This document shows positions 1-18,141 of a DNA stretch of 36,215 nt, in pieces. How positions within the stretch are numbered: position 1 is the stretch's first letter; each line of letters starts with the position of its first letter. The DNA lies in IMG/VR virus record IMGVR_UViG_2579779009_000001, positions 1-36,215 of that record; one strand, written 5' to 3'. The notes beneath the pieces were generated by a model that saw only the letters and a list, made by a program, of their open reading frames with translations, searched no databases and was not told the DNA's origin. The position numbers were made by a program, and so were the translations under genes. This stretch comes from a virus (taxonomy: Duplodnaviria; Heunggongvirae; Uroviricota; Caudoviricetes).

Positions 1-1254
1 ATGCTGGAACAAATGGGCATTGCCGCGAAGCAAGCCTCGTATAAATTAGCGCAACTCTCCAGCCGCGAAAAAAATCGCGTGCTGGAAAAAATCGCCGATG
101 AACTGGAAGCACAAAGCGAAATCATCCTCAACGCTAACGCCCAGGATGTTGCTGACGCGCGTGCCAATGGCCTTGGCGAAGCGATGCTTGACCGTCTGGC
201 ACTGACGCCCGCACGGCTGAAAGGCATTGCCGATGATGTGCGCCAGGTGTGTAACCTCGCCGATCCGGTGGGGCAGGTAATCGATGGCAGCGTACTGGAC
301 AGCGGCCTGCGTCTTGAGCGTCGTCGCGTACCGCTGGGGGTTATTGGCGTGATTTATGAAGCGCGCCCGAACGTGACGGTTGATGTCGCTTCGCTGTGCC
401 TGAAAACCGGTAATGCGGTGATCCTGCGCGGTGGCAAAGAAACGTGTCGCACTAACGCTGCAACGGTGGCGGTGATTCAGGACGCCCTGAAATCCTGCGG
501 CTTACCGGCGGGTGCCGTGCAGGCGATTGATAATCCTGACCGTGCGCTGGTCAGTGAAATGCTGCGTATGGATAAATACATCGACATGCTGATCCCGCGT
601 GGTGGCGCTGGTTTGCATAAACTGTGCCGTGAACAGTCGACAATCCCGGTGATCACAGGTGGTATAGGCGTATGCCATATTTACGTTGATGAAAGTGTAG
701 AGATCGCTGAAGCATTAAAAGTGATCGTCAACGCGAAAACTCAGCGTCCGAGCACATGTAATACGGTTGAAACGTTGCTGGTGAATAAAAACATCGCCGA
801 TAGCTTCCTGCCCGCATTAAGCAAACAAATGGCGGAAAGCGGCGTGACATTACACGCAGATGCAGCTGCACTGGCGCAGTTGCAGGCAGGCCCTGCGAAG
901 GTGGTTGCTGTTAAAGCCGAAGAGTATGACGATGAGTTTCTGTCATTAGATTTGAACGTCAAAATCGTCAGCGATCTTGACGATGCCATCGCCCATATTC
1001 GTGAACACGGCACACAACACTCCGATGCGATCCTGACCCGCGATATGCGCAACGCCCAGCGTTTTGTTAACGAAGTGGATTCGTCCGCTGTTTACGTTAA
1101 CGCCTCTACGCGTTTTACCGACGGCGGCCAGTTTGGTCTGGGTGCGGAAGTGGCGGTAAGCACACAAAAACTCCACGCGCGTGGCCCAATGGGGCTGGAA
1201 GCACTGACCACTTACAAGTGGATCGGCATTGGTGATTACACCATTCGTGCGTAA
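1..1254 (+). CDS. proA: gamma-glutamyl phosphate reductase (complete, 417 aa)
   Basis: Full-length ORF whose translation ([41 protein letters not shown]...) I recognise as E. coli-type ProA; sits immediately upstream of thrW as in Enterobacteriaceae. Confidence 0.95.
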
Positions 1255-1368
1255 ATAAAACCGGGTGATGCAAAAGTAGCCATTTGATTCACAAGGCCAT
1301 TGACGCATCGCCCGGTTAGTTTTAACCTTGTCCACCGTGATTCACGTTCGTGAACATGTCCTTTCAGG

Positions 1369-1444
1369 GCCGATATAGCTCAGTTGGTAGAGCAGCGCAT
1401 TCGTAATGCGAAGGTCGTAGGTTCGACTCCTATTATCGGCACCA
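1369..1444 (+). tRNA. thrW: tRNA-Thr (anticodon CGU)
   Basis: 76-nt GCCGATATAGCTCAGTTGGTAGAGCAGCGCATTCGTAATGCGAAGGTCGTAGGTTCGACTCCTATTATCGGCACCA with cloverleaf arms, anticodon loop tCGTaa and 3' CCA; proA-thrW synteny. Confidence 0.92.
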
Positions 1445-1458
1445 TTTAAATCAATAAG

Positions 1459-2622
1459 TTACACATCATTAGTACCTTCCTTATTTTTTGACTGGGACAA
1501 ATTTGGGACCGATGGGTTCAGGATCGAGTCTATTTGCCGTGCGTGTTCGGTAAGGTGATTAGGTGCAAGGTGAGCATATCGACGAACCATTTCGATAGAC
1601 TCCCAGCCTCCCATTTCCTGTAACACTGACAACGGGACTCCGGCTTGAACCAGCCAACTTGCCCAGGTGTGTCTCAAGTCGTGAAATCTGAAATCATCAA
1701 TACCAGCCCGTCTCAGCGCCGCTTTCCAGGCTGTGTTTGCGTCATACCGCATCTTCCTTACTGTTGGCGCTTTCGTTCCGTCTGGTTTGGTACAGCTTTC
1801 CTTGTACACAAATACCCAACGGTGATGATTCCCGATTTGTTTTTTCAAAACGCGACATGCAGTATCATTCAGCGCAACGCCGATTGCGCGGTTTGATTTA
1901 CTCTCTTCCGGGTTTATCCATGCCACCCGGCGCTGCATATCTATTTGTTGCCATTCAAGGTTGATGATGTTCGAGCGTCTTAAGCCTGTTGCCAGTGCAA
2001 ATTCAACAACAGACTTTAATGGCTCCGGACATTCATCAATCAGCCTTTGTGCTTCATGGGGCTCCAGCCAGCGGATCCGTTTATTCTTTGGTTGAGGCAC
2101 TTTAATAATTGGTGCCTTATCCAGCATTTTCCATTCACGCTCTGCGGCTCTTAGTAGGGCCTTTATAAATGAAAGATGCGTAGCCTTCGTTGCAACGGAC
2201 GCTGGTTTTGGCGTGTATTCTGGAACAGGTTTCCCTTTTTTTCTGCATGCTTCTGCCCTGAGTTTCCAGTTTTCCTCATGACGCCGGTTCGTCATTTTCT
2301 GCATTGCTGAATAAATTTTTGATTCAGTAATGTCTCTTAGTTGCATTCCTGCGAAATGTTGAAGCCAGAATCCGATCCGGCTTTTGTCATCGTCCAGTGA
2401 TTTTTTATATGCTTTCTCTTCAAGCCACCTGACACACGCTTCCTCGAACGTTATATCAGGTATTTCACCAAGTTTGCTGACCCGCCATGCTTCAGCCTTT
2501 AGCTTGTCATGGAGTTCTGTCGCCTGCCTTTTGTCCTTTGTTCCAAGAGACTGTTTAAATCTTTTACCGTTCGGCAATGTGAAACTGGCGTACCATATTT
2601 CACCTCTGCGGAAGAGTGACAT
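1459..2622 (-). CDS. int: Tyrosine-recombinase integrase, P22-type
   Basis: 387-aa ORF convergent on the tRNA; N-terminus [46 protein letters not shown] and C-terminal [10 protein letters not shown]...VRRYAHL catalytic region are typical of P22-like Int, whose attB is in thrW. Confidence 0.92.
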
Positions 2623-5060: not shown

Positions 5061-5423
5061 TTAATGACCTGCTGCGCGGAGTTTTCCGTCAGGTTCACCG
5101 GCAAGAGTCAGTAATTGTCCCTGGTCTTCCTGCAGAATAGTCAGGCGACCACCGCGATTGACATACATCGGCGTTTCGGTAGTGTCTTCTTCGGAAATTT
5201 TCCCGCGGTTAGTTGGGCGAACATATGAGAGTTTGTGTTTGATTTTCACACGGTTCTCATCAAATGGTTCAATTTCTAGGTTGAGCGAGACCTTACCTTT
5301 GGTTTTCGTGTTCATCACACCGGAAGCGACTTCACTGAGAACTGCGCCGATTTTGGTTTCAAATACGCCGCCGTCCAGCTCCCCGATAAATGCCTGCACA
5401 TCAGTACTGCGTTCGCTAGCCAT
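5061..5423 (-). CDS. Hypothetical early-left phage protein (YfdP-like by position, 120 aa)
   Basis: Start at internal ATG (MASERSTDVQAF...) with AGGAGC RBS; the upstream 106 codons of the track ORF are R/P/C-rich and lie in a structured non-coding region. Confidence 0.65.
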   Translation of the reverse strand: MASERSTDVQAFIGELDGGVFETKIGAVLSEVASGVMNTKTKGKVSLNLEIEPFDENRVKIKHKLSYVRPTNRGKISEEDTTETPMYVNRGGRLTILQEDQGQLLTLAGEPDGKLRAAGH

Positions 5424-5471
5424 TTTGCTGCTCCTCATCATATCGACCCTGCAAGGCCGATTAGTTTCTCC

Positions 5472-5560
5472 ACAAAACAGAGAAGAACACCTGCGGTGGC
5501 AGCCGCCCGGATGGATTGGGTTATGAGCCCGTCGTCCGGTGATGCTCTTCTCTGTTTTGT
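5472..5560. repeat. Long inverted repeat (15-bp perfect arms ACAAAACAGAGAAGA / TCTTCTCTGTTTTGT, ~55-nt GC-rich loop) inside an ORF-poor structured region (~5430-5760)
   Basis: Arms at 5472-5486 and 5546-5560 read directly; further hairpins downstream, e.g. GCCTGG-cgaaggttgcaca-CCAGGC (~5653-5677); no U-tract follows on either strand. Confidence 0.6.
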
Positions 5561-5860
5561 AAAAAGGACGGTACCAGCCGGAAGCAAGGGTACAAACTGG
5601 TACCGCCAGGACTACACACAGCATAAAGTTGTGGTGCCGGGTGCCTCCCGGTGCCTGGCGAAGGTTGCACACCAGGCGGGTGGGTATCCACAGAAGGTCG
5701 ACTGTCAGCCTCAACCTTAACCCGCGTGCGCTGAGCCGCATTCACCACAACGCTAAGGATTCTCTCTGGTTGAAAATACTTAGCTGTTATGTGCCTGTCT
5801 TTTCACCACTTCAGGCTCGGTGGTATCCTTTTAAGCCCGTATACATAAAAGGAAAATCAA

Positions 5861-6106
5861 ATGACTTTTGATGAAAAAGAACTTGATAATGCAATTAATA
5901 AAATCATCGTAACGTCGCTCTTTTCCTGTCTCAGCGACACTCAGCAGAAACAGTTCTACGAATCGGCTTTCAACATGATCGAGCGTTGTTGTTTCTGCGA
6001 TGCCGACGAGTTACCTGAAAAAATCAGGAAACAGTTGGCTGATGCTCTTCGAGTGCGACTTTCTGACCAATTTTCTGAAATGTGCTCTCCGAATTTGGAC
6101 AAATAG
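5861..6106 (+). CDS. Hypothetical small protein (81 aa), transcribed opposite to the early-left operon
   Basis: AAGGA RBS 7 nt upstream of ATG; protein-like composition (MTFDEKELDNAINKIIV...); 3' end overlaps the convergent minus-strand ORF 6024..6299. Confidence 0.5.
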   Translation: MTFDEKELDNAINKIIVTSLFSCLSDTQQKQFYESAFNMIERCCFCDADELPEKIRKQLADALRVRLSDQFSEMCSPNLDK

Positions 6107-6299
6107 AAAAAGGCCATTTCCATTCAGGGTCTGATGGAAATACTTCAGCCTGTTCCAAAGCACGGCGTAAAGAGAATACAACTCCAGCCATAATCTGATG
6201 TTTCCCATTGGTCCAGCTATCGCCGCTCTGATCTACAGGAGCGGCTATGTCGTATGACCAAACGATTTCACCACTATTGTTTAAAATCTGGACTTTCAT
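6024..6299 (-). CDS. Hypothetical small protein (91 aa), early-left operon
   Basis: ORF directly downstream of the ClpX-ZBD-like gene on the same strand; GGAGG upstream; 3' end overlaps the plus-strand ORF, so the true extent is uncertain. Confidence 0.45.
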   Translation of the reverse strand: MKVQILNNSGEIVWSYDIAAPVDQSGDSWTNGKHQIMAGVVFSLRRALEQAEVFPSDPEWKWPFSICPNSESTFQKIGQKVALEEHQPTVS

Positions 6300-6307
6300 T
6301 TTGTTCT

Positions 6308-6511
6308 TTAACCTCCAGATTTCCGCGCATCTAAAGGCGCATTCTCATTTGGTGTGAACTGAATAGTTGTGCTGATATTGATTAATGCTCCGACACACAA
6401 GACTACGCACTCAGAGCAGATAGCAACTTCATCTTTTCCGCCTTTGGAGATGATTTTTTTTGCCTGCAGCTCGTTTGCGCCACAAAACGAGCATGTGAAA
6501 TAACGGTTCAT
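6308..6511 (-). CDS. Standalone ClpX-type C4 zinc-finger (ZBD-like) mini-protein (~67 aa; alternative start 6529)
   Basis: TCSFCG...KKII...ICSECVVLC aligns with the ClpX N-terminal zinc-binding domain ([31 protein letters not shown]); first gene of the leftward operon after the OL-like operator. Confidence 0.65.
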   Translation of the reverse strand: MNRYFTCSFCGANELQAKKIISKGGKDEVAICSECVVLCVGALINISTTIQFTPNENAPLDARKSGG

Positions 6512-6615
6512 TTGCGCTCTCTTACACATAGTATTTAACGAATCATCCGGTCATTCATACGCCACCGGCGGCTACTTCGTGGGCGTCCTGCCTGTCCGTG
6601 ATAGCTTACATTATG

Positions 6616-6665
6616 TTGCTACTTAAAGTAGCAAAAATCAACAACAAAAAGTAGATATTTGTTGT
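6616..6665. promoter_or_regulatory. OL-like operator region (candidate PL): 19-bp perfect palindrome TTGCTACTTAAAGTAGCAA plus adjacent inverted repeat AACAACAAA...TTTGTTGTT
   Basis: The palindrome half-site CTACTTAAAGTAG recurs twice in the cI-cro intergenic region; lies between the ParA-like gene terminator and the first early-left gene. Confidence 0.6.
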
Positions 6666-6824
6666 TGTCTATGATTTTTCTATAATTAATTGAAAGTTAA
6701 ATGTTTTTGCTGATTTACTATGCTGTAAACTGAAAATATCGCACGAAGTTGGAGTAGGTATTGAGCATAGTGAATTATGAGGAGGGAGTTTTTTATGAGA
6801 TTAATCAGGGAGAAAGAAGAGTAA

Positions 6825-6852: not shown

Positions 6853-7929
6853 TTACTTTGTAAGTTCTAGAACTCGTTGAGCCAGCCCTTTAAATTGTTC
6901 GTTAAAGGCGTCTCTGCTTGATTTCATTGTATTTAAGGCATGCCCAAATTGCCCTGAATCGCGAATTTGCTGATCACTGATGGAGAAAACAGGTGTCGCT
7001 AGTTGTTGGCTTATTGCGATTAATGAGTTGAAATCGGAAATATGCGCAAGATCATAGGCTGATAAATCTCCACTGACTGTTGTTTTGTTAATTGCATGTT
7101 GCACTTTATCTCGTGGAATTATGCAGGTAATTTTTTCTAGATTTGGCACTAAGATCGAATCAACAGCATCACGGATAGCTGCCATCCATTTTTCGAAAGA
7201 TTTTACAGGTGCTCCTTTACGCGGCCTGTATCTCTGCTGAATCATACCTAGAAACTGCGGTGCATTTTTAATTGATTGTGAAGAGTTACCATCATTATTT
7301 TCTTTAAATAATGCTAATTCTTTGTGCCAGCGAGGTATATTTTTTGAGAGAGAGCGAATTGCTTGCCAGCAAAAAAAGTCTGGAGCTACAGGTACGATAA
7401 AATAGTCACTTGACATGAGAACTACTTCATTTAAACCTCCAACATTAGGGCTGAGATCATAAAGAATGTAATCAATATTATTCTTCAAGGCGATTAGCTG
7501 TAATATTTTTGGCAGGTTCCCTGGTATATTTCTTGTAGCAGGAATACCAGCAGCAATTTTTAGAGAAACACTTATCTGTGAATCTAAGTCCGAAACATCT
7601 AAATGTCCGGGAAGAAGCAGAAGGTTTTCATGCAGTGTAGGGTGTAATTTTCCCGTTTCTTTTTCAAGGTATGCTTCAGGTTGTCCGCCATTAATCAAAT
7701 ATTCTACAATAGGTCCAAGAGTTAAGTTATCTCTGCTAGAATAAAAAGAATCTAAACCCTCATCAATCTTTTCATAGCCAAGAACCATTCCTGTTAGATT
7801 ACATTGCGAATCAAGGTCAACCATCAATACTTTCTTGCCTTCATCCGCAAGTGCCCATCCAAGATTGAAGGTTGTTGTGGTTTTACTTACCCCACCTTTA
7901 TGATTAAAAAAACAAATTGATTTTGTCAT
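6853..7929 (-). CDS. ParA/MinD-family P-loop ATPase (358 aa) with extended C-terminal region; lone gene between OL and cI
   Basis: Deviant Walker A at residues 10-17 (NHKGGVSKTTTTFNLGWALADEGKKVLMVDLDSQ), Walker B-like YILYDLSP; AAGGA RBS; AT-rich by eye; same strand as and downstream of cI. No adjacent ParB-like gene. Confidence 0.8.
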   Translation of the reverse strand: MTKSICFFNHKGGVSKTTTTFNLGWALADEGKKVLMVDLDSQCNLTGMVLGYEKIDEGLDSFYSSRDNLTLGPIVEYLINGGQPEAYLEKETGKLHPTLHENLLLLPGHLDVSDLDSQISVSLKIAAGIPATRNIPGNLPKILQLIALKNNIDYILYDLSPNVGGLNEVVLMSSDYFIVPVAPDFFCWQAIRSLSKNIPRWHKELALFKENNDGNSSQSIKNAPQFLGMIQQRYRPRKGAPVKSFEKWMAAIRDAVDSILVPNLEKITCIIPRDKVQHAINKTTVSGDLSAYDLAHISDFNSLIAISQQLATPVFSISDQQIRDSGQFGHALNTMKSSRDAFNEQFKGLAQRVLELTK

Positions 7930-14719: not shown

Positions 14720-14736
14720 TTTTGTGGAGAAGGTTG

Positions 14737-15078
14737 ATGCGTGATATGTATGAAGTTTTGGACCGCTGGGGAGCATGGGCGGCAGCAGATAACAGTGGTG
14801 TGGACTGGCAACCGATAGCTGCAGGCTTCAAGGGGCTTTTACCTCATGGCAAAAAGTCTCGCCTCCAGTGTGATGATGATGAAGGGATCATGATAGACGG
14901 TTGTGTCGCACGGTTACGTAAATATAAACAAGAAGAATATGAGTTAGTTATTGCCCACTTTGTTATTGGTATTTCATTACGCACCATTGCGAAGAAGCGT
15001 AAGTGTTCTGATGGGACAATTAGAAAAGATATGCAAACAGCATTAGGTTTTGTTAGTGGTGTGCTATCAATGCTATGA
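14737..15078 (+). CDS. Putative late-gene antiterminator (Q-like, 113 aa)
   Basis: GGAGAAGG RBS before the ATG at 14737; last gene before the lysis region; C-terminal HTH-like segment. Call is by position and size, not strong homology. Confidence 0.5.
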   Translation: MRDMYEVLDRWGAWAAADNSGVDWQPIAAGFKGLLPHGKKSRLQCDDDEGIMIDGCVARLRKYKQEEYELVIAHFVIGISLRTIAKKRKCSDGTIRKDMQTALGFVSGVLSML

Positions 15079-15082
15079 TTAT

Positions 15083-15104
15083 AAGAGGCCTTAGGGCCTC
15101 TTTG
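15083..15104. terminator. Bidirectional hairpin between Q-like gene and the convergent moron operon
   Basis: AGAGGCC-ttag-GGCCTCT palindrome followed by TTTGCT on plus and TTATAAT on minus. Confidence 0.55.
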
Positions 15105-15845
15105 CTAAATTACTTGGATGATGAAAGAAACAATCAATGCTGCTAAACCACCAACGGCAGATACTTTGAATTCCGAACCACGAAATGCCATCTTCCCATT
15201 GACCTTTATATTATTTGCAATGAATGGCGAGATTCCAACGGCCGCACTCATGAAATATAAAGAGAAAATCATTTTCTTTTGAAATTCATTCAAATCTGGT
15301 ATTAGCAGCGTAATTGATAAAAAAATACAAAAACATAAAAATCCAATAATGGCAGTGACAATTAATTTCCAATTCATTGGTGTGCCTATAGTAAATCCAT
15401 CGATTGGCAAATTTCGAGACTCAAATTCAGCAATAATAGGTGTGTAAATATCTTTTGATGAATACTTTTTAATGATTCTTTGGAGGTTTGATAGACCATC
15501 TTTGCTATACAGTACAATATTGTTTGGATCAATTTCTAGGCATTTAATGTTTGACACCATCATGTCGTAGTATTCTAAATAAGTTTCCAGAACCGCTCGA
15601 CAGTCTCCAACTAAGGAAATGGCAAATGTCTTATTGTCATCCAGTTTACATAAATCTACTTTTTGAACTAATTTAACAGCGGTATTAAAATATTTTGAAG
15701 CATGCTGCTGAATTTCATGTAGGTCAGCAAGGTTTGATATACCATTACACAAGTATGGCTGAATACCACGTAAAAATCTTTCCTTTGCAGAAATCAGCTC
15801 CGACGTTACTTCGTCGGGGCTGATCTGAAACACATCATTATTCAT
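15105..15845 (-). CDS. Membrane protein of unknown function: ~155-aa N-terminal soluble domain plus three C-terminal TM helices (246 aa)
   Basis: Hydrophobic segments WKLIVTAIIGFLCFCIFLSITLLI, MIFSLYFMSAAVGISPFIA, VSAVGGLAALIVSFIIQVI; start overlaps the upstream gene stop (ATGA); AT-rich; opposite strand to flanking late genes. Confidence 0.7.
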   Translation of the reverse strand: MNNDVFQISPDEVTSELISAKERFLRGIQPYLCNGISNLADLHEIQQHASKYFNTAVKLVQKVDLCKLDDNKTFAISLVGDCRAVLETYLEYYDMMVSNIKCLEIDPNNIVLYSKDGLSNLQRIIKKYSSKDIYTPIIAEFESRNLPIDGFTIGTPMNWKLIVTAIIGFLCFCIFLSITLLIPDLNEFQKKMIFSLYFMSAAVGISPFIANNIKVNGKMAFRGSEFKVSAVGGLAALIVSFIIQVI

Positions 15846-16105
15846 TTTTGTTTTGGCGCCAGCATTCTTAATGCAGTGTTAAGATCAGAGTTGTCCACAC
15901 TGTCGGTGATTAAGAAATGGGTATTGGGAACATGACGGCTGATAATGCCTTGGAGCATGCTACGACTTATAACTTTACCACTTTGAATCGCGGAGTTAAT
16001 GTCATTTTGTATCAAAGTGATTTCACGCTCGGCACAGGGGAAACCCCACCGAGTAACACATGCATATTGACCAATTTTTCTCTTAACTTCCAAGTAGTTA
16101 CTCAT
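15842..16105 (-). CDS. Small soluble protein of unknown function (87 aa), first gene of the two-gene moron operon
   Basis: AAGGAG RBS 7 nt before ATG at 16105 (MSNYLEVKRKIGQYACVTRWGFPCAERE...); stop overlaps the start of the membrane-protein gene. Confidence 0.65.
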   Translation of the reverse strand: MSNYLEVKRKIGQYACVTRWGFPCAEREITLIQNDINSAIQSGKVISRSMLQGIISRHVPNTHFLITDSVDNSDLNTALRMLAPKQK

Positions 16106-16225
16106 TGCTGTTCTCCTTGTTTGTAACCACGCCGATAGTATCAAAAAGTAAAGTAATAAAAAACTAACGCGTACGCAAAAAAAATTGTATCGTGTTAAGA
16201 GTGGTTACTTCGCCACACAGCTTAA

Positions 16226-16250
16226 ACCCGCCGTCGAGCGGGTTTTGTCG
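16226..16250 (+). terminator. tR'-like intrinsic terminator in the late-promoter leader upstream of the lysis genes
   Basis: ACCCGC-cgtcga-GCGGGT followed by TTTGTCGTTTCTG, ~150 nt upstream of the holin start, as for the lambda 6S RNA terminator. Confidence 0.55.
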
Positions 16251-16397
16251 TTTCTGTGGCTGGGGATTCGTTGGTCTTGGCCTATTCCGCAGTTATTCAT
16301 TGGTTCGGCTTCTTTGACGTTTCCGCTTCTGATTTGCGATACATGATGTTCCCTCAATTTGCACCTGCTGTATCGGCGAGGTGAGAGATAACTACAA

Positions 16398-16724
16398 ATG
16401 CCTCATAACCCAAATACTTGGCTGGAGTTGGTCCAGAGCTGGTGGCGTGGAGACACACCGCTGGGCGCAGTAATTATGTCGATCGTTATGGCTGGCTTGC
16501 GCATTGCCTATTTTGGCGGTGGTGGTGGCTGGAAGCGAAAAACGCTCGAGATTTTGCTCTGTGGTGCTCTGACGCTGTCTTTTGCATCCGCTCTTGAGTA
16601 TGTCGGATGGCCTAAATCTCTTTCTGTTGCTATTGGTGGTGGCGTTGGGCTGATCGGGGTCGATGCTATTCGTGGGGCTGCAATGAGAGTAATCGGTAAT
16701 AAGTTTGGTGGTTCTAAGGAGTAA
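16398..16724 (+). CDS. Holin
   Basis: 108-aa protein with hydrophobic TM segments and charged C-terminus, immediately upstream of the endolysin. Confidence 0.7.
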   Translation: MPHNPNTWLELVQSWWRGDTPLGAVIMSIVMAGLRIAYFGGGGGWKRKTLEILLCGALTLSFASALEYVGWPKSLSVAIGGGVGLIGVDAIRGAAMRVIGNKFGGSKE

Positions 16725-17204: not shown

Positions 17205-17649
17205 GCTGGTTATCTCTGCTTTCTTCGTTACTGTCATTGGTTCTTTCATCTGGTCAGCAAATTATTACCACAGCAAAGCCATCGAATACAAAAAGCAGCG
17301 TGATGAGAATGCTATGGCATTAGATTCGGCTATGGCGACTATCTCTGATATGCAGAAGCGTCAACGTGATGTAGCAGAACTTGACGCCAGATACACAAAG
17401 GAGCTTGCTGATGCTAACGCGACTATCGAAAGTCTCCGTGCTGATGTTTCTTCTGGGCGTAAGCGCCTGCAAGTCGCCGCCACCTGTGCAAAATCAACGA
17501 CCAGAGCCAGCGGCATGGGCGATGGAGAAAGCCCAGGACTTACAGCAGATGCTGAACTCAATTATTACCGTCTCCGAAGTGGAATCGACAGGATAACCGC
17601 ACAGGTTAACTACCTGCAGGAGTACATCAGGACGCAATGCCTTCGATGA
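17188..17649 (+). CDS. i-spanin (Rz-like)
   Basis: N-terminal TM anchor (LVISAFFVTVIGSFIWSA) plus coiled-coil periplasmic domain; embedded Rz1 in the +1 frame. Confidence 0.85.
   Translation: MKLSYKLVISAFFVTVIGSFIWSANYYHSKAIEYKKQRDENAMALDSAMATISDMQKRQRDVAELDARYTKELADANATIESLRADVSSGRKRLQVAATCAKSTTRASGMGDGESPGLTADAELNYYRLRSGIDRITAQVNYLQEYIRTQCLR
17411..17596 (+). CDS. o-spanin lipoprotein (Rz1-like), embedded in the Rz gene
   Basis: AAGGAG RBS; signal peptide with lipobox (MLTRLSKVSVLMFLLGVSAC); Pro-rich mature part (PPPVQNQRPEPAAWA) like lambda Rz1. Confidence 0.75.
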   Translation: MLTRLSKVSVLMFLLGVSACKSPPPVQNQRPEPAAWAMEKAQDLQQMLNSIITVSEVESTG

Positions 17650-17916
17650 TAGCGATAATTTTACTCATCATCCTTCACATCAGGCTCTGTAGACAGAGTG
17701 GTGATTACTTCTGGAGTGGATTCAGATTAAACATCTCATTGCTAATGTTTGAGGTTAAGCATCTGGCGCGCGGTAAGTGGTTGCGTTGAAATCAGAGCCA
17801 GTCCATTACAAATCTCATCAAGCGTTATTGGTAAGGGTGATAATTATGAGATATCTCTTCACTAAGAGTAATCTTAAGGGTAATGTGTAACCTCACTTTT
17901 TAATACGGAGGTTGTA

Positions 17917-18141
17917 ATGTTAGAGAATTATTTCCCTTCAGGAATAGGTGCTCAGTCTGTAACTCAAGCTCAAAAACAGAGGGTTATAGCTGTTCAAGCT
18001 GCCCTTGAATTAGTTAAGGCTTCACTTTCTTCTGCAGGTGGTCAGGCTACAAGTGCAAAATTTGAACAGGAATTAAAAGCAGCTATTGGCTTAATTGAAC
18101 CATTAGCCGATGCCATTCAGAAAGCAATCAGCAAAGAATAA
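17917..18141 (+). CDS. Small helical protein of unknown function (74 aa)
   Basis: GGAGG RBS; AT-rich upstream region; followed by a strong intrinsic terminator; sits between lysis and packaging modules. Confidence 0.55.
   Translation: MLENYFPSGIGAQSVTQAQKQRVIAVQAALELVKASLSSAGGQATSAKFEQELKAAIGLIEPLADAIQKAISKE

Follow-up and report, generated by a model that had tools for sequence, protein, structure and literature searches.

A candidate two-gene anti-phage module in the cargo slot after antiterminator Q of an Escherichia coli prophage

Membrane-effector abortive infection (Abi) systems are carried by prophages and satellites, are located in hotspots and are expressed in the lysogen (PMC9122126), and DS-1, another of the systems closest to the locus described here, has been validated experimentally in the DefensePredictor study (PMC13092281, Tables S6 and S8). 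The present analysis concerns two adjacent genes, named A and B, in a 36,215-nucleotide (nt) stretch of tailed-phage DNA (Caudoviricetes; positions 1 to 36,215 of IMG/VR record IMGVR_UViG_2579779009_000001; hereafter the window). Gene B (15105-15845) and gene A (15842-16105) are both encoded on the minus strand of an AT-rich insert of ~1.09 kb between the gene of antiterminator Q and the late-promoter/terminator block. Because the slot, the integron and P2 contexts of the homologues and a DefensePredictor prediction agree, we slightly favour the view that A-B is a self-contained, horizontally mobile two-component anti-phage module, carried as a moron in a slot for defence cargo.

The borders of this slot are sharp. 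On its left lies the gene of antiterminator Q (14722-15078, plus strand), which encodes a protein of 118 amino acids (aa) matching PF06530 (E 2.4e-45) and PHROG 79 ('anti-termination protein Q-like'); on its right, beyond the late-promoter block, the first late gene encodes a lambda-family holin (16398-16724, plus strand; PF05106, E 7e-25). In BLAST comparison with related phages, the homology on the Q side stops at ~15072-15078 and restarts at 16156-16162. The Q genes of mEp460 and SfII match the window up to ~15072, and homology to these two phages is back at 16156-16158. By these alignments the cargo proper is about 15079-16163. In a megablast of phage records the insert was covered by none, with matches restricted to the Q and holin flanks. 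The GC content of 0.32-0.40 over 15000-16200, compared with 0.50-0.57 on either flank, agrees with the AT-rich insert of ~1 kb described in the initial annotation of this DNA, which had been made from the sequence alone.

Related prophages fill the same slot with other genes. The DUF968 and Q backbone is carried at a coverage of at least 80% by 617 complete E. coli genomes, and in all six prophages sampled from these at even ranking steps a different opposite-strand operon of two or three genes lies directly after Q. One sampled cargo is Kiwa (KwaB, PADLOC E 2e-150), the cargo of O104:H4 (WP_000150292.1 and WP_000355468.1) is DS-1, and the PADLOC candidate PDC-M53 stands at the slot in one sampled prophage (L030) as well as in phage SfII; other cargos are a set of three genes, one of them encoding a TIGR04255 protein, and a pair of 182 and 308 aa. 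The three unannotated cargos after Q are further defence candidates. When SfII is included, the cargo is antisense to Q-side transcription in seven of seven phage backbones, and this uniform orientation is suggestive. The view of the initial annotation that the Q-to-lysis interval is a moron hotspot is thereby borne out by named defence systems. The same annotation had presented an insert after Q as unusual; the insert is real, but cargo at this position is the rule in this lineage (6/6 relatives) and not the exception.

Gene A encodes a soluble protein of 87 aa with an isoelectric point (pI) of 9.4 and the C-terminal motif SVDNSDLNTALR, and is regarded as a putative partner, regulator or sensor. 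Its mechanical open reading frame (ORF) runs from a TTG codon (15842-16144, minus strand, 100 aa), and the ATG at 16105 gives the 87-aa protein. The stop codon of A overlaps the start codon of B as ATGA at 15842-15845. The ORF of B encodes a putative membrane effector of 246 aa, in which a cytoplasmic all-helical N-terminal domain (residues ~10-145) is followed by three C-terminal transmembrane (TM) helices. Exactly these coding sequences (CDSs; 741 and 264 nt) are annotated as hypothetical by the RefSeq Prokaryotic Genome Annotation Pipeline (PGAP) in 21 of 5426 complete E. coli genomes, and all 21 copies of the pair lie between Q and a lambda-family holin gene. Both are real genes and not chance ORFs, because homologues of 50-60% identity show many synonymous-only codon differences: in comparison with the Klebsiella copy, the codon differences of window B are synonymous-only in 78 cases and replacements in 104, and those of A in 19 and 46, respectively.

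Hydropathy analysis showed hydrophobic segments of B at residues ~161-183, 192-210 (the weakest) and 228-246, and no hydrophobic segment in A. The AlphaFold2 (AF2) model of B places helices at 159-181, 187-212 and 227-245 and contains a five-helix N-terminal bundle with a predicted local distance difference test score (pLDDT) of 85-92; the model of A has a mean pLDDT of 80. The gene pair with its ATGA overlap, the N-terminal domain of ~155 aa ahead of three TM helices and the small soluble partner, as read in the initial annotation, all agree with these results and with the RefSeq gene calls. Averaged over 26 sequences, the TM1-TM2 loop holds 0.7 lysine plus arginine residues and the TM2-TM3 loop 2.8, which by the positive-inside rule indicates a cytoplasmic N-terminal domain and a periplasmic C-terminus. 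As modelled, B is an inner-membrane protein composed of a cytoplasmic helical bundle and three TM helices.

The two genes were found together wherever the family was scored. An A-type protein was defined by the C-terminal motif [SG][VIA]D[NT]SDLxTLL and by a position directly 5' of B on the same strand, overlapping or abutting it. A B-type protein was defined by an N-terminal helical domain with the motifs YFN, AE(D/T)C, MQRMV and LPxxGF, followed by C-terminal TM helices. The order A-B, with or without a second A gene (A') in front, was observed on one strand in 28 of 28 loci scored with local A and B profiles, drawn from E. coli, Klebsiella, Citrobacter, Vibrio, Aeromonas, Acinetobacter, Pseudomonas, Comamonas, a zetaproteobacterium and an Ignavibacteriales metagenome-assembled genome (MAG); five of these loci, the Ignavibacteriales MAG among them, had been retrieved via the A motif alone. 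In every lineage the small upstream gene precedes the larger B with an overlap of 1-4 nt. Judged from gene order, A-B is an obligate, translationally coupled unit across distant bacteria, and conserved co-occurrence, which had been set beforehand as a test capable of refuting the proposal, was upheld.

Conservation within each protein is concentrated in short motifs. The A family shares an invariant C-terminal D-x-S-D-L-x-T-x-L (VDNSDLNTLL), which reads SVDNSDLNTAL at residues 69-79 of the window protein and places it within the A type. Window B aligns over its full length with 25 relatives (profile E 2.8e-91) and belongs to the B type. Residues F53, Q122, G150 and F151 of B are invariant, and N54, C82, L86, R123 and P147 are nearly so; the conserved motifs comprise YFN (F53 N54), AE(D/T)C (C82), MQRMV (Q122 R123), LPxxGF (P147 G150 F151) and a glycine-rich TM3.

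Variants of the unit suggest how it is built. Many lineages carry two tandem A paralogues, and where there are three genes a basic small paralogue is accompanied by an acidic one (pI 4.3-5.4). In a Comamonas MAG the paralogues are fused into a protein of 158 aa (5199-5675) with two IDNSDLxTLLA copies, encoded 5' of B; an integrase fragment and a DUF4238 gene lie nearby. The N-terminal domain of B is joined elsewhere to one TM helix and a PGAP1/DUF676-type alpha/beta-hydrolase, to three TM helices and DUF3298, or to short soluble tails; these alternative-C-terminus relatives were found in the search of representatives (P0090, P0073, P0088 and P0081). A is retained 5' of a variant B with a differing C-terminal part (locus L024). 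The retention of A with variant C-termini of B suggests that A works with the N-terminal domain of B and that the output, the membrane part, can be exchanged. Two further assignments were considered and set aside. The soluble tails of P0088 and P0081 looked similar to the 'effector-associated domains' of conflict systems, which Pfam did not confirm. A role of A as a DNA-binding autoregulator would suit the basic charge of most copies, but the second paralogue is acidic and no helix-turn-helix (HTH) fold was found.

The pair also occurs outside lambdoid prophages. In Vibrio parahaemolyticus the two genes make up one cassette of 1.25 kb, flanked by attC-like repeats (6549-6670 and 7804-7872 of locus L019) in a 14-copy superintegron array, and in V. 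kyushuensis the pair adjoins an integron-type integrase (PF13495 and PF00589); these homologues, and not the window copy, are integron gene cassettes. In a P2-like phage the tail-fibre assembly and tail-sheath genes flank the pair, which is on the opposite strand; we take this position to be the Z/fun moron site of P2. A defence hotspot within the P2 tail genes has been described in a 2026 survey (PMC13586616). On a class-1 integron plasmid of P. aeruginosa the locus of the pair is beside HamA, in a Pseudomonas island it is 5 kb from Lamassu LmuB (E 3e-143), and the Comamonas pair has the DUF4238 gene mentioned above in its vicinity. Some islands that harbour the pair also have HigB/HTH and ParE-like modules.

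A separate line of evidence comes from DefensePredictor (DeWeirdt et al., Science 2026, PMC13092281), whose Table S10 covers 3,000 E. coli genomes. In that table WP_126677159.1, whose cluster has the representative WP_053886465.1, carries the label 'Predicted novel defense gene'; its mean log-odds is 7.88 (7.04-9.11), the strict cut-off of the method being 4 (PMC13092281). The representative is the E. coli E1 allele of B (CDS 6026-6769 of that locus). The E1 locus is 93.7% identical to the window in DNA, and its B protein is about 92% identical, with 18 of 246 aligned codons differing and one extra residue. Members of a cluster in the study share with the representative an identity of 30% or more and a reciprocal coverage of 80% or more (PMC13092281), and window B falls within these limits for WP_053886465.1. 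The cluster is a single-gene machine-learning prediction that was not cloned, and it does not cover the A partner, the motif, the wider family or the contexts.

Searches of other collections placed A and B among proteins that are themselves undescribed. Neither protein had a meaningful match in Pfam, NCBIfam or PADLOC; the initial annotation had recognised neither. In PADLOC v2, which covers known and candidate defence systems, B gave only a spurious DndH fragment (E 0.003, 12.8 bits) and A gave none, and scans of every member of the family alignments against Pfam, NCBIfam and PADLOC returned scattered sub-threshold matches only. The SLATT/DUF4231 pore-forming domain was not detected in window B and appeared below threshold in one of 26 family members (E 0.036). 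Sequence profile searches of the PDB with A and B reached no E-value below 0.028, and a Foldseek comparison with viral structures had no match at E <= 0.001. Each protein matches one phage family, PHROG 5814 in the case of B (E 1.7e-14, near full length) and PHROG 31842 in the case of A (E 5.6e-7); both PHROGs are unannotated and so carry no functional information. No homology to characterised non-defence proteins was found for either protein. Close homologues of the pair are few and enterobacterial. The B profile recovered 79 clusters from 1.84e9 representatives, most of them ~250 aa and matching over the full length, and a second search gave 92 B clusters, all hypothetical, from Vibrio, Shewanella, Marinomonas, Acinetobacter, Aeromonas, Pseudomonas/Stutzerimonas, Comamonas, Noviherbaspirillum and Mariprofundaceae. 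No paper text citing the RefSeq accessions of the pair was found, one E. coli prophage defence screen lying outside the coverage of this search. As far as found, the partner gene A, the motifs, the distribution and the modular architecture are undescribed in the literature, and the family is flagged only by the machine-learning list.

The cargo appears to bring its own promoter and 3' signal. A candidate extended -10 element, TGATACTAT (16135-16143, minus strand), is proposed on conservation only: TGnTAnnnT stands at -38/-39 from the ATG of A in four diverged versions (the window, E. coli E1, Klebsiella and Citrobacter), and the V. parahaemolyticus cassette has a perfect TGGTATAAT at -33 from this ATG. 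A Shine-Dalgarno sequence, AAGGAG, is read at 16113-16118 (minus strand), 7 nt 5' of the ATG of A. At the other end of the operon a GC-rich hairpin with an 8-bp stem (AAGAGGCC-TTAG-GGCCTCTT, 15083-15102) lies where Q and B converge, between their stop codons, with a free energy (dG) of about -13.4 kcal/mol and a z-score of -3.9 on the minus strand. It is probably the end of the A-B transcript, and the Klebsiella and Citrobacter versions have a GC hairpin of different sequence at the same position after B. The initial annotation had placed a bidirectional hairpin at 15083-15104. Its strong stem is confirmed with the exact limits given here, whereas bidirectional termination is only plausible: neither strand has a proper T-run, and the terminator scan did not call the site.

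The three readings offered in the initial annotation, namely defence, exclusion and a toxin-antitoxin (TA) pair, are backed by location, by the other contexts and by DefensePredictor, with the function still that of a candidate. That the pair acts somehow against incoming phages, whether as a module that aborts infection or by exclusion, seems probable to us. A detailed mechanism can be put forward only tentatively. In the lysogen, transcription of the operon would start at an extended -10 promoter of its own, with the start site predicted near 16128 (minus strand), and would end at the hairpin beside Q. The C-terminal helix of A would bind the cytoplasmic N-terminal domain of B and either hold B off or serve as a sensor. 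An infecting phage would perturb A, upon which B would oligomerise and the inner membrane would be permeabilised or depolarised, so that the infection is aborted. During lytic growth of the prophage itself, rightward transcription through Q would run antisense over the cargo and may silence it. A membrane-targeting, swappable effector fits the relatives in which the N-terminal domain is joined to a TM helix and a hydrolase. A bolder and rather doubtful version is an immune switch, in which the DNSDLNTLL helix of A would dock in the B bundle as a 'safety-pin', the portable bundle would drive three-TM, hydrolase or periplasmic outputs, the phage trigger would displace or destroy A, and the antisense placement would confer self-immunity on the carrier.

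Several points weigh against a defence role and against this mechanism. The experimental validation rate of DefensePredictor hits is only 45% overall (PMC13092281), and the method uses genomic context, so that its prediction is not fully independent of the argument from location. The pair is absent from the validated and cloned tables of that study (PMC13092281), and no sequence motif of the pair occurs in the supplements of three integron-cassette screens. Neither sequence nor structural likeness to a known effector or sensor was found for A or B, and no experimental data on the A-B family were found. The contact between A and B, the oligomerisation of B, the membrane damage and the antisense silencing are steps that we infer. 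In Aeromonas, Acinetobacter and Marinomonas the pair forms bare islets among housekeeping genes with no recognisable defence neighbour. In the P. aeruginosa class-1 integron plasmid CP137918.1 (3560-4657) B is intact and A is cut by IS1394, which leaves its last ~25 codons; this arrangement is awkward for A as an essential antidote unless B is silent there.

The first alternative is superinfection exclusion, in which B together with A would block entry of the phage genome at the inner membrane and the cell would survive. Blocking of genome entry is the mode of Sie-, Imm- and Cor-type prophage proteins and of the membrane integron cassette 'Deva', and B is likewise a prophage-encoded inner-membrane protein. 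All the location evidence for defence applies equally to exclusion, and some relatives of B bear domains after the TM helices (e.g. DUF3298) that would be periplasmic by the positive-inside rule, where ejection proteins arrive. About one third of integron defence cassettes have TM helices, and one of them interferes with genome injection (10.1101/2024.07.02.601719). However, B has its largest and most conserved portion in the cytoplasm, and A, its obligate partner, is a soluble cytoplasmic protein; neither is required for an entry block. The E. coli B protein is nearly without periplasmic residues, with a loop of nine residues and a C-terminus that ends at TM3, and the lipase-like hydrolase variant suits an effector better than a plug. 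Exclusion is considered unlikely.

Plain TA addiction, with A as a labile antitoxin and B as a membrane toxin that stabilise their carrier without any anti-phage role, also seems improbable. The arrangement of the genes speaks for it: a small upstream gene overlaps a larger downstream one in every lineage. The cassette inside the superintegron seemingly has its own promoter, as is typical of TA cassettes in superintegrons; small stand-alone copies among housekeeping genes and the HigB/HTH and ParE-like modules in the same islands point in the same direction. Nevertheless, no TA family was matched in Pfam, NCBIfam or PADLOC, the truncation of A by an insertion sequence beside an intact B in CP137918.1 is awkward for an antidote, and sister phages fill the same prophage slot with defence systems. 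TA activity does not preclude abortive infection, and this alternative overlaps with the anti-phage module proposed above.

A non-defence role in conversion or physiology (membrane stress, transport, signalling, or regulation of lysis timing near the holin) is the least likely: the pair does stand beside the lysis cassette in all enterobacterial prophage copies, the Q-to-S interval also bears stx and methyltransferases (a DNA methyltransferase lies 3' of the late-promoter block in mEp460 and in one sampled E. coli prophage, L027) and no positive functional evidence favours any role, but A-B is transcribed away from the late operon, 5' of the late-promoter block, and is thus not co-expressed with the holin, its homologues reside in integron cassettes, chromosomal islets, a plasmid and a P2-like phage without lysis genes nearby, and no likeness to holins, antiholins, spanins or transporters was found. 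A phage lysis accessory was rejected as an assignment, with no Pfam or PHROG lysis family matched, the genes on the opposite strand 5' of the block, and homologues outside phages.

The right border of the slot is a conserved backbone block (16164-16255, plus strand; CTAACGCGTACGCAAAAA...GTGTTAAGAGTGGTTACTTCGCCACACAGCTTAA, followed by a hairpin at 16224-16245 and a T-run) that is near-invariant in SfII, mEp460 and the E. coli E1, Klebsiella and Citrobacter prophages. A six-way alignment of the window, E. coli E1, SfII, mEp460, one Klebsiella prophage and one Citrobacter prophage gave the order CTAACGCGTACGCAAAAA, next TATTGTATCGTGTTAAGAGTGGTTACTTCGCCACACAGCTTAA, then the hairpin and the T-run. 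About 85 bp of the block (16164-16250) are kept in these six phages, which bear four different cargos on its left, where the sequences are unrelated unless the cargo is shared. The block is probably a unit of Q-dependent late promoter, leader and tR', and it is the best candidate for the late promoter and tR' because it accompanies this type of Q and has an intrinsic terminator at its end. Both the placing of the cargo between Q and the late promoter and the tR'-like terminator of the initial annotation are supported by this alignment and by a terminator scan, which located a terminator-like site with a T-rich tail at 16224-16245. No confident assignment of sigma-70 hexamers inside the block was obtained from the terminator scan and the reading of the alignment. 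Whatever the cargo on its left, the block hardly varies among phages of E. coli, Shigella, Klebsiella and Citrobacter that have a PF06530-type Q, and it looks like the unit of Q utilisation, late promoter and tR' belonging to this Q type. In the Citrobacter prophage, extra ORFs of 95 aa (plus strand) and 73 aa (minus strand) lie between A-B and the holin (7063-7568), and neither has a Pfam or PADLOC match.

At the start of the window (1-2622) come proA and then an integrase gene, which identifies an E. coli prophage integrated beside proA; SfII-like phages presumably use the thrW tRNA site in the proA region. In the early-right arm the order is RusA, KilA-N and DUF968 genes, then antiterminator Q. 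A second GC dip (0.37) was noticed between the Rz-like lysis gene and the HNH/terminase genes, where ORFs at 17637-17789 (50 aa) and 17917-18141 (74 aa) are hypothetical in RefSeq; this may be another moron slot. In the mEp460 record LR595868.1 a DUF968/HNH-like protein 5' of Q (252-1241) is annotated as 'Phage antitermination protein Q', which looks like a misannotation because the adjacent 113-aa gene is the PF06530-type Q.

The slot between Q and the late promoter has precise borders, from the Q stop codon to the invariant 85-bp block (15079-16163), and is directly minable with that block as a precise right-hand anchor. The 617 genomes with this Q backbone are open to such mining, and every sampled one holds a different small opposite-strand operon. 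A-B itself is a credible, well-delimited defence candidate, one among thousands of such predictions. If validated, it would be a defence system of two families without Pfam, PADLOC or structural relatives, and one that moves among three platforms, namely the lambdoid slot after Q, the P2 tail-gene slot and integron cassettes. It would then be a good tracer of immune-gene travel.

Compared with known systems, A-B resembles type II TA modules in gene order and the 4-nt overlap, in its apparent own promoter and in its carriage by integrons and prophages. It differs from them in that A is without an antitoxin-type DNA-binding fold, no known toxin fold is present and A is often duplicated or fused. 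RexAB, the HAD-hydrolase and TM system of P4 satellites and the TM effectors of cyclic-oligonucleotide-based anti-phage signalling systems (CBASS), Pycsar and retrons follow the same logic as A-B, a soluble partner or sensor with an inner-membrane protein proposed to collapse membrane integrity. No homology of these membrane-effector systems to A or B was found. RexB is a four-TM protein, whereas B has three C-terminal TM helices behind a helical bundle of 150 aa; A is far smaller than RexA, the cyclases or the hydrolases and has no enzymatic signature. Closest in position are Kiwa (KwaA and KwaB) and DS-1 (a hypothetical protein and a YejK-like nucleoid-associated protein), which are two-gene opposite-strand operons in the same slot after Q as A-B. 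Kiwa is also a pair of a membrane and a soluble protein, yet the PADLOC models of KwaA and KwaB gave no match to A or B at E <= 1, and the pair is not a Kiwa system. The architecture differs as well: in Kiwa the membrane protein is small and upstream and KwaB is a large DUF4868 protein, whereas in A-B the membrane protein is large, lies downstream and carries its own cytoplasmic domain.

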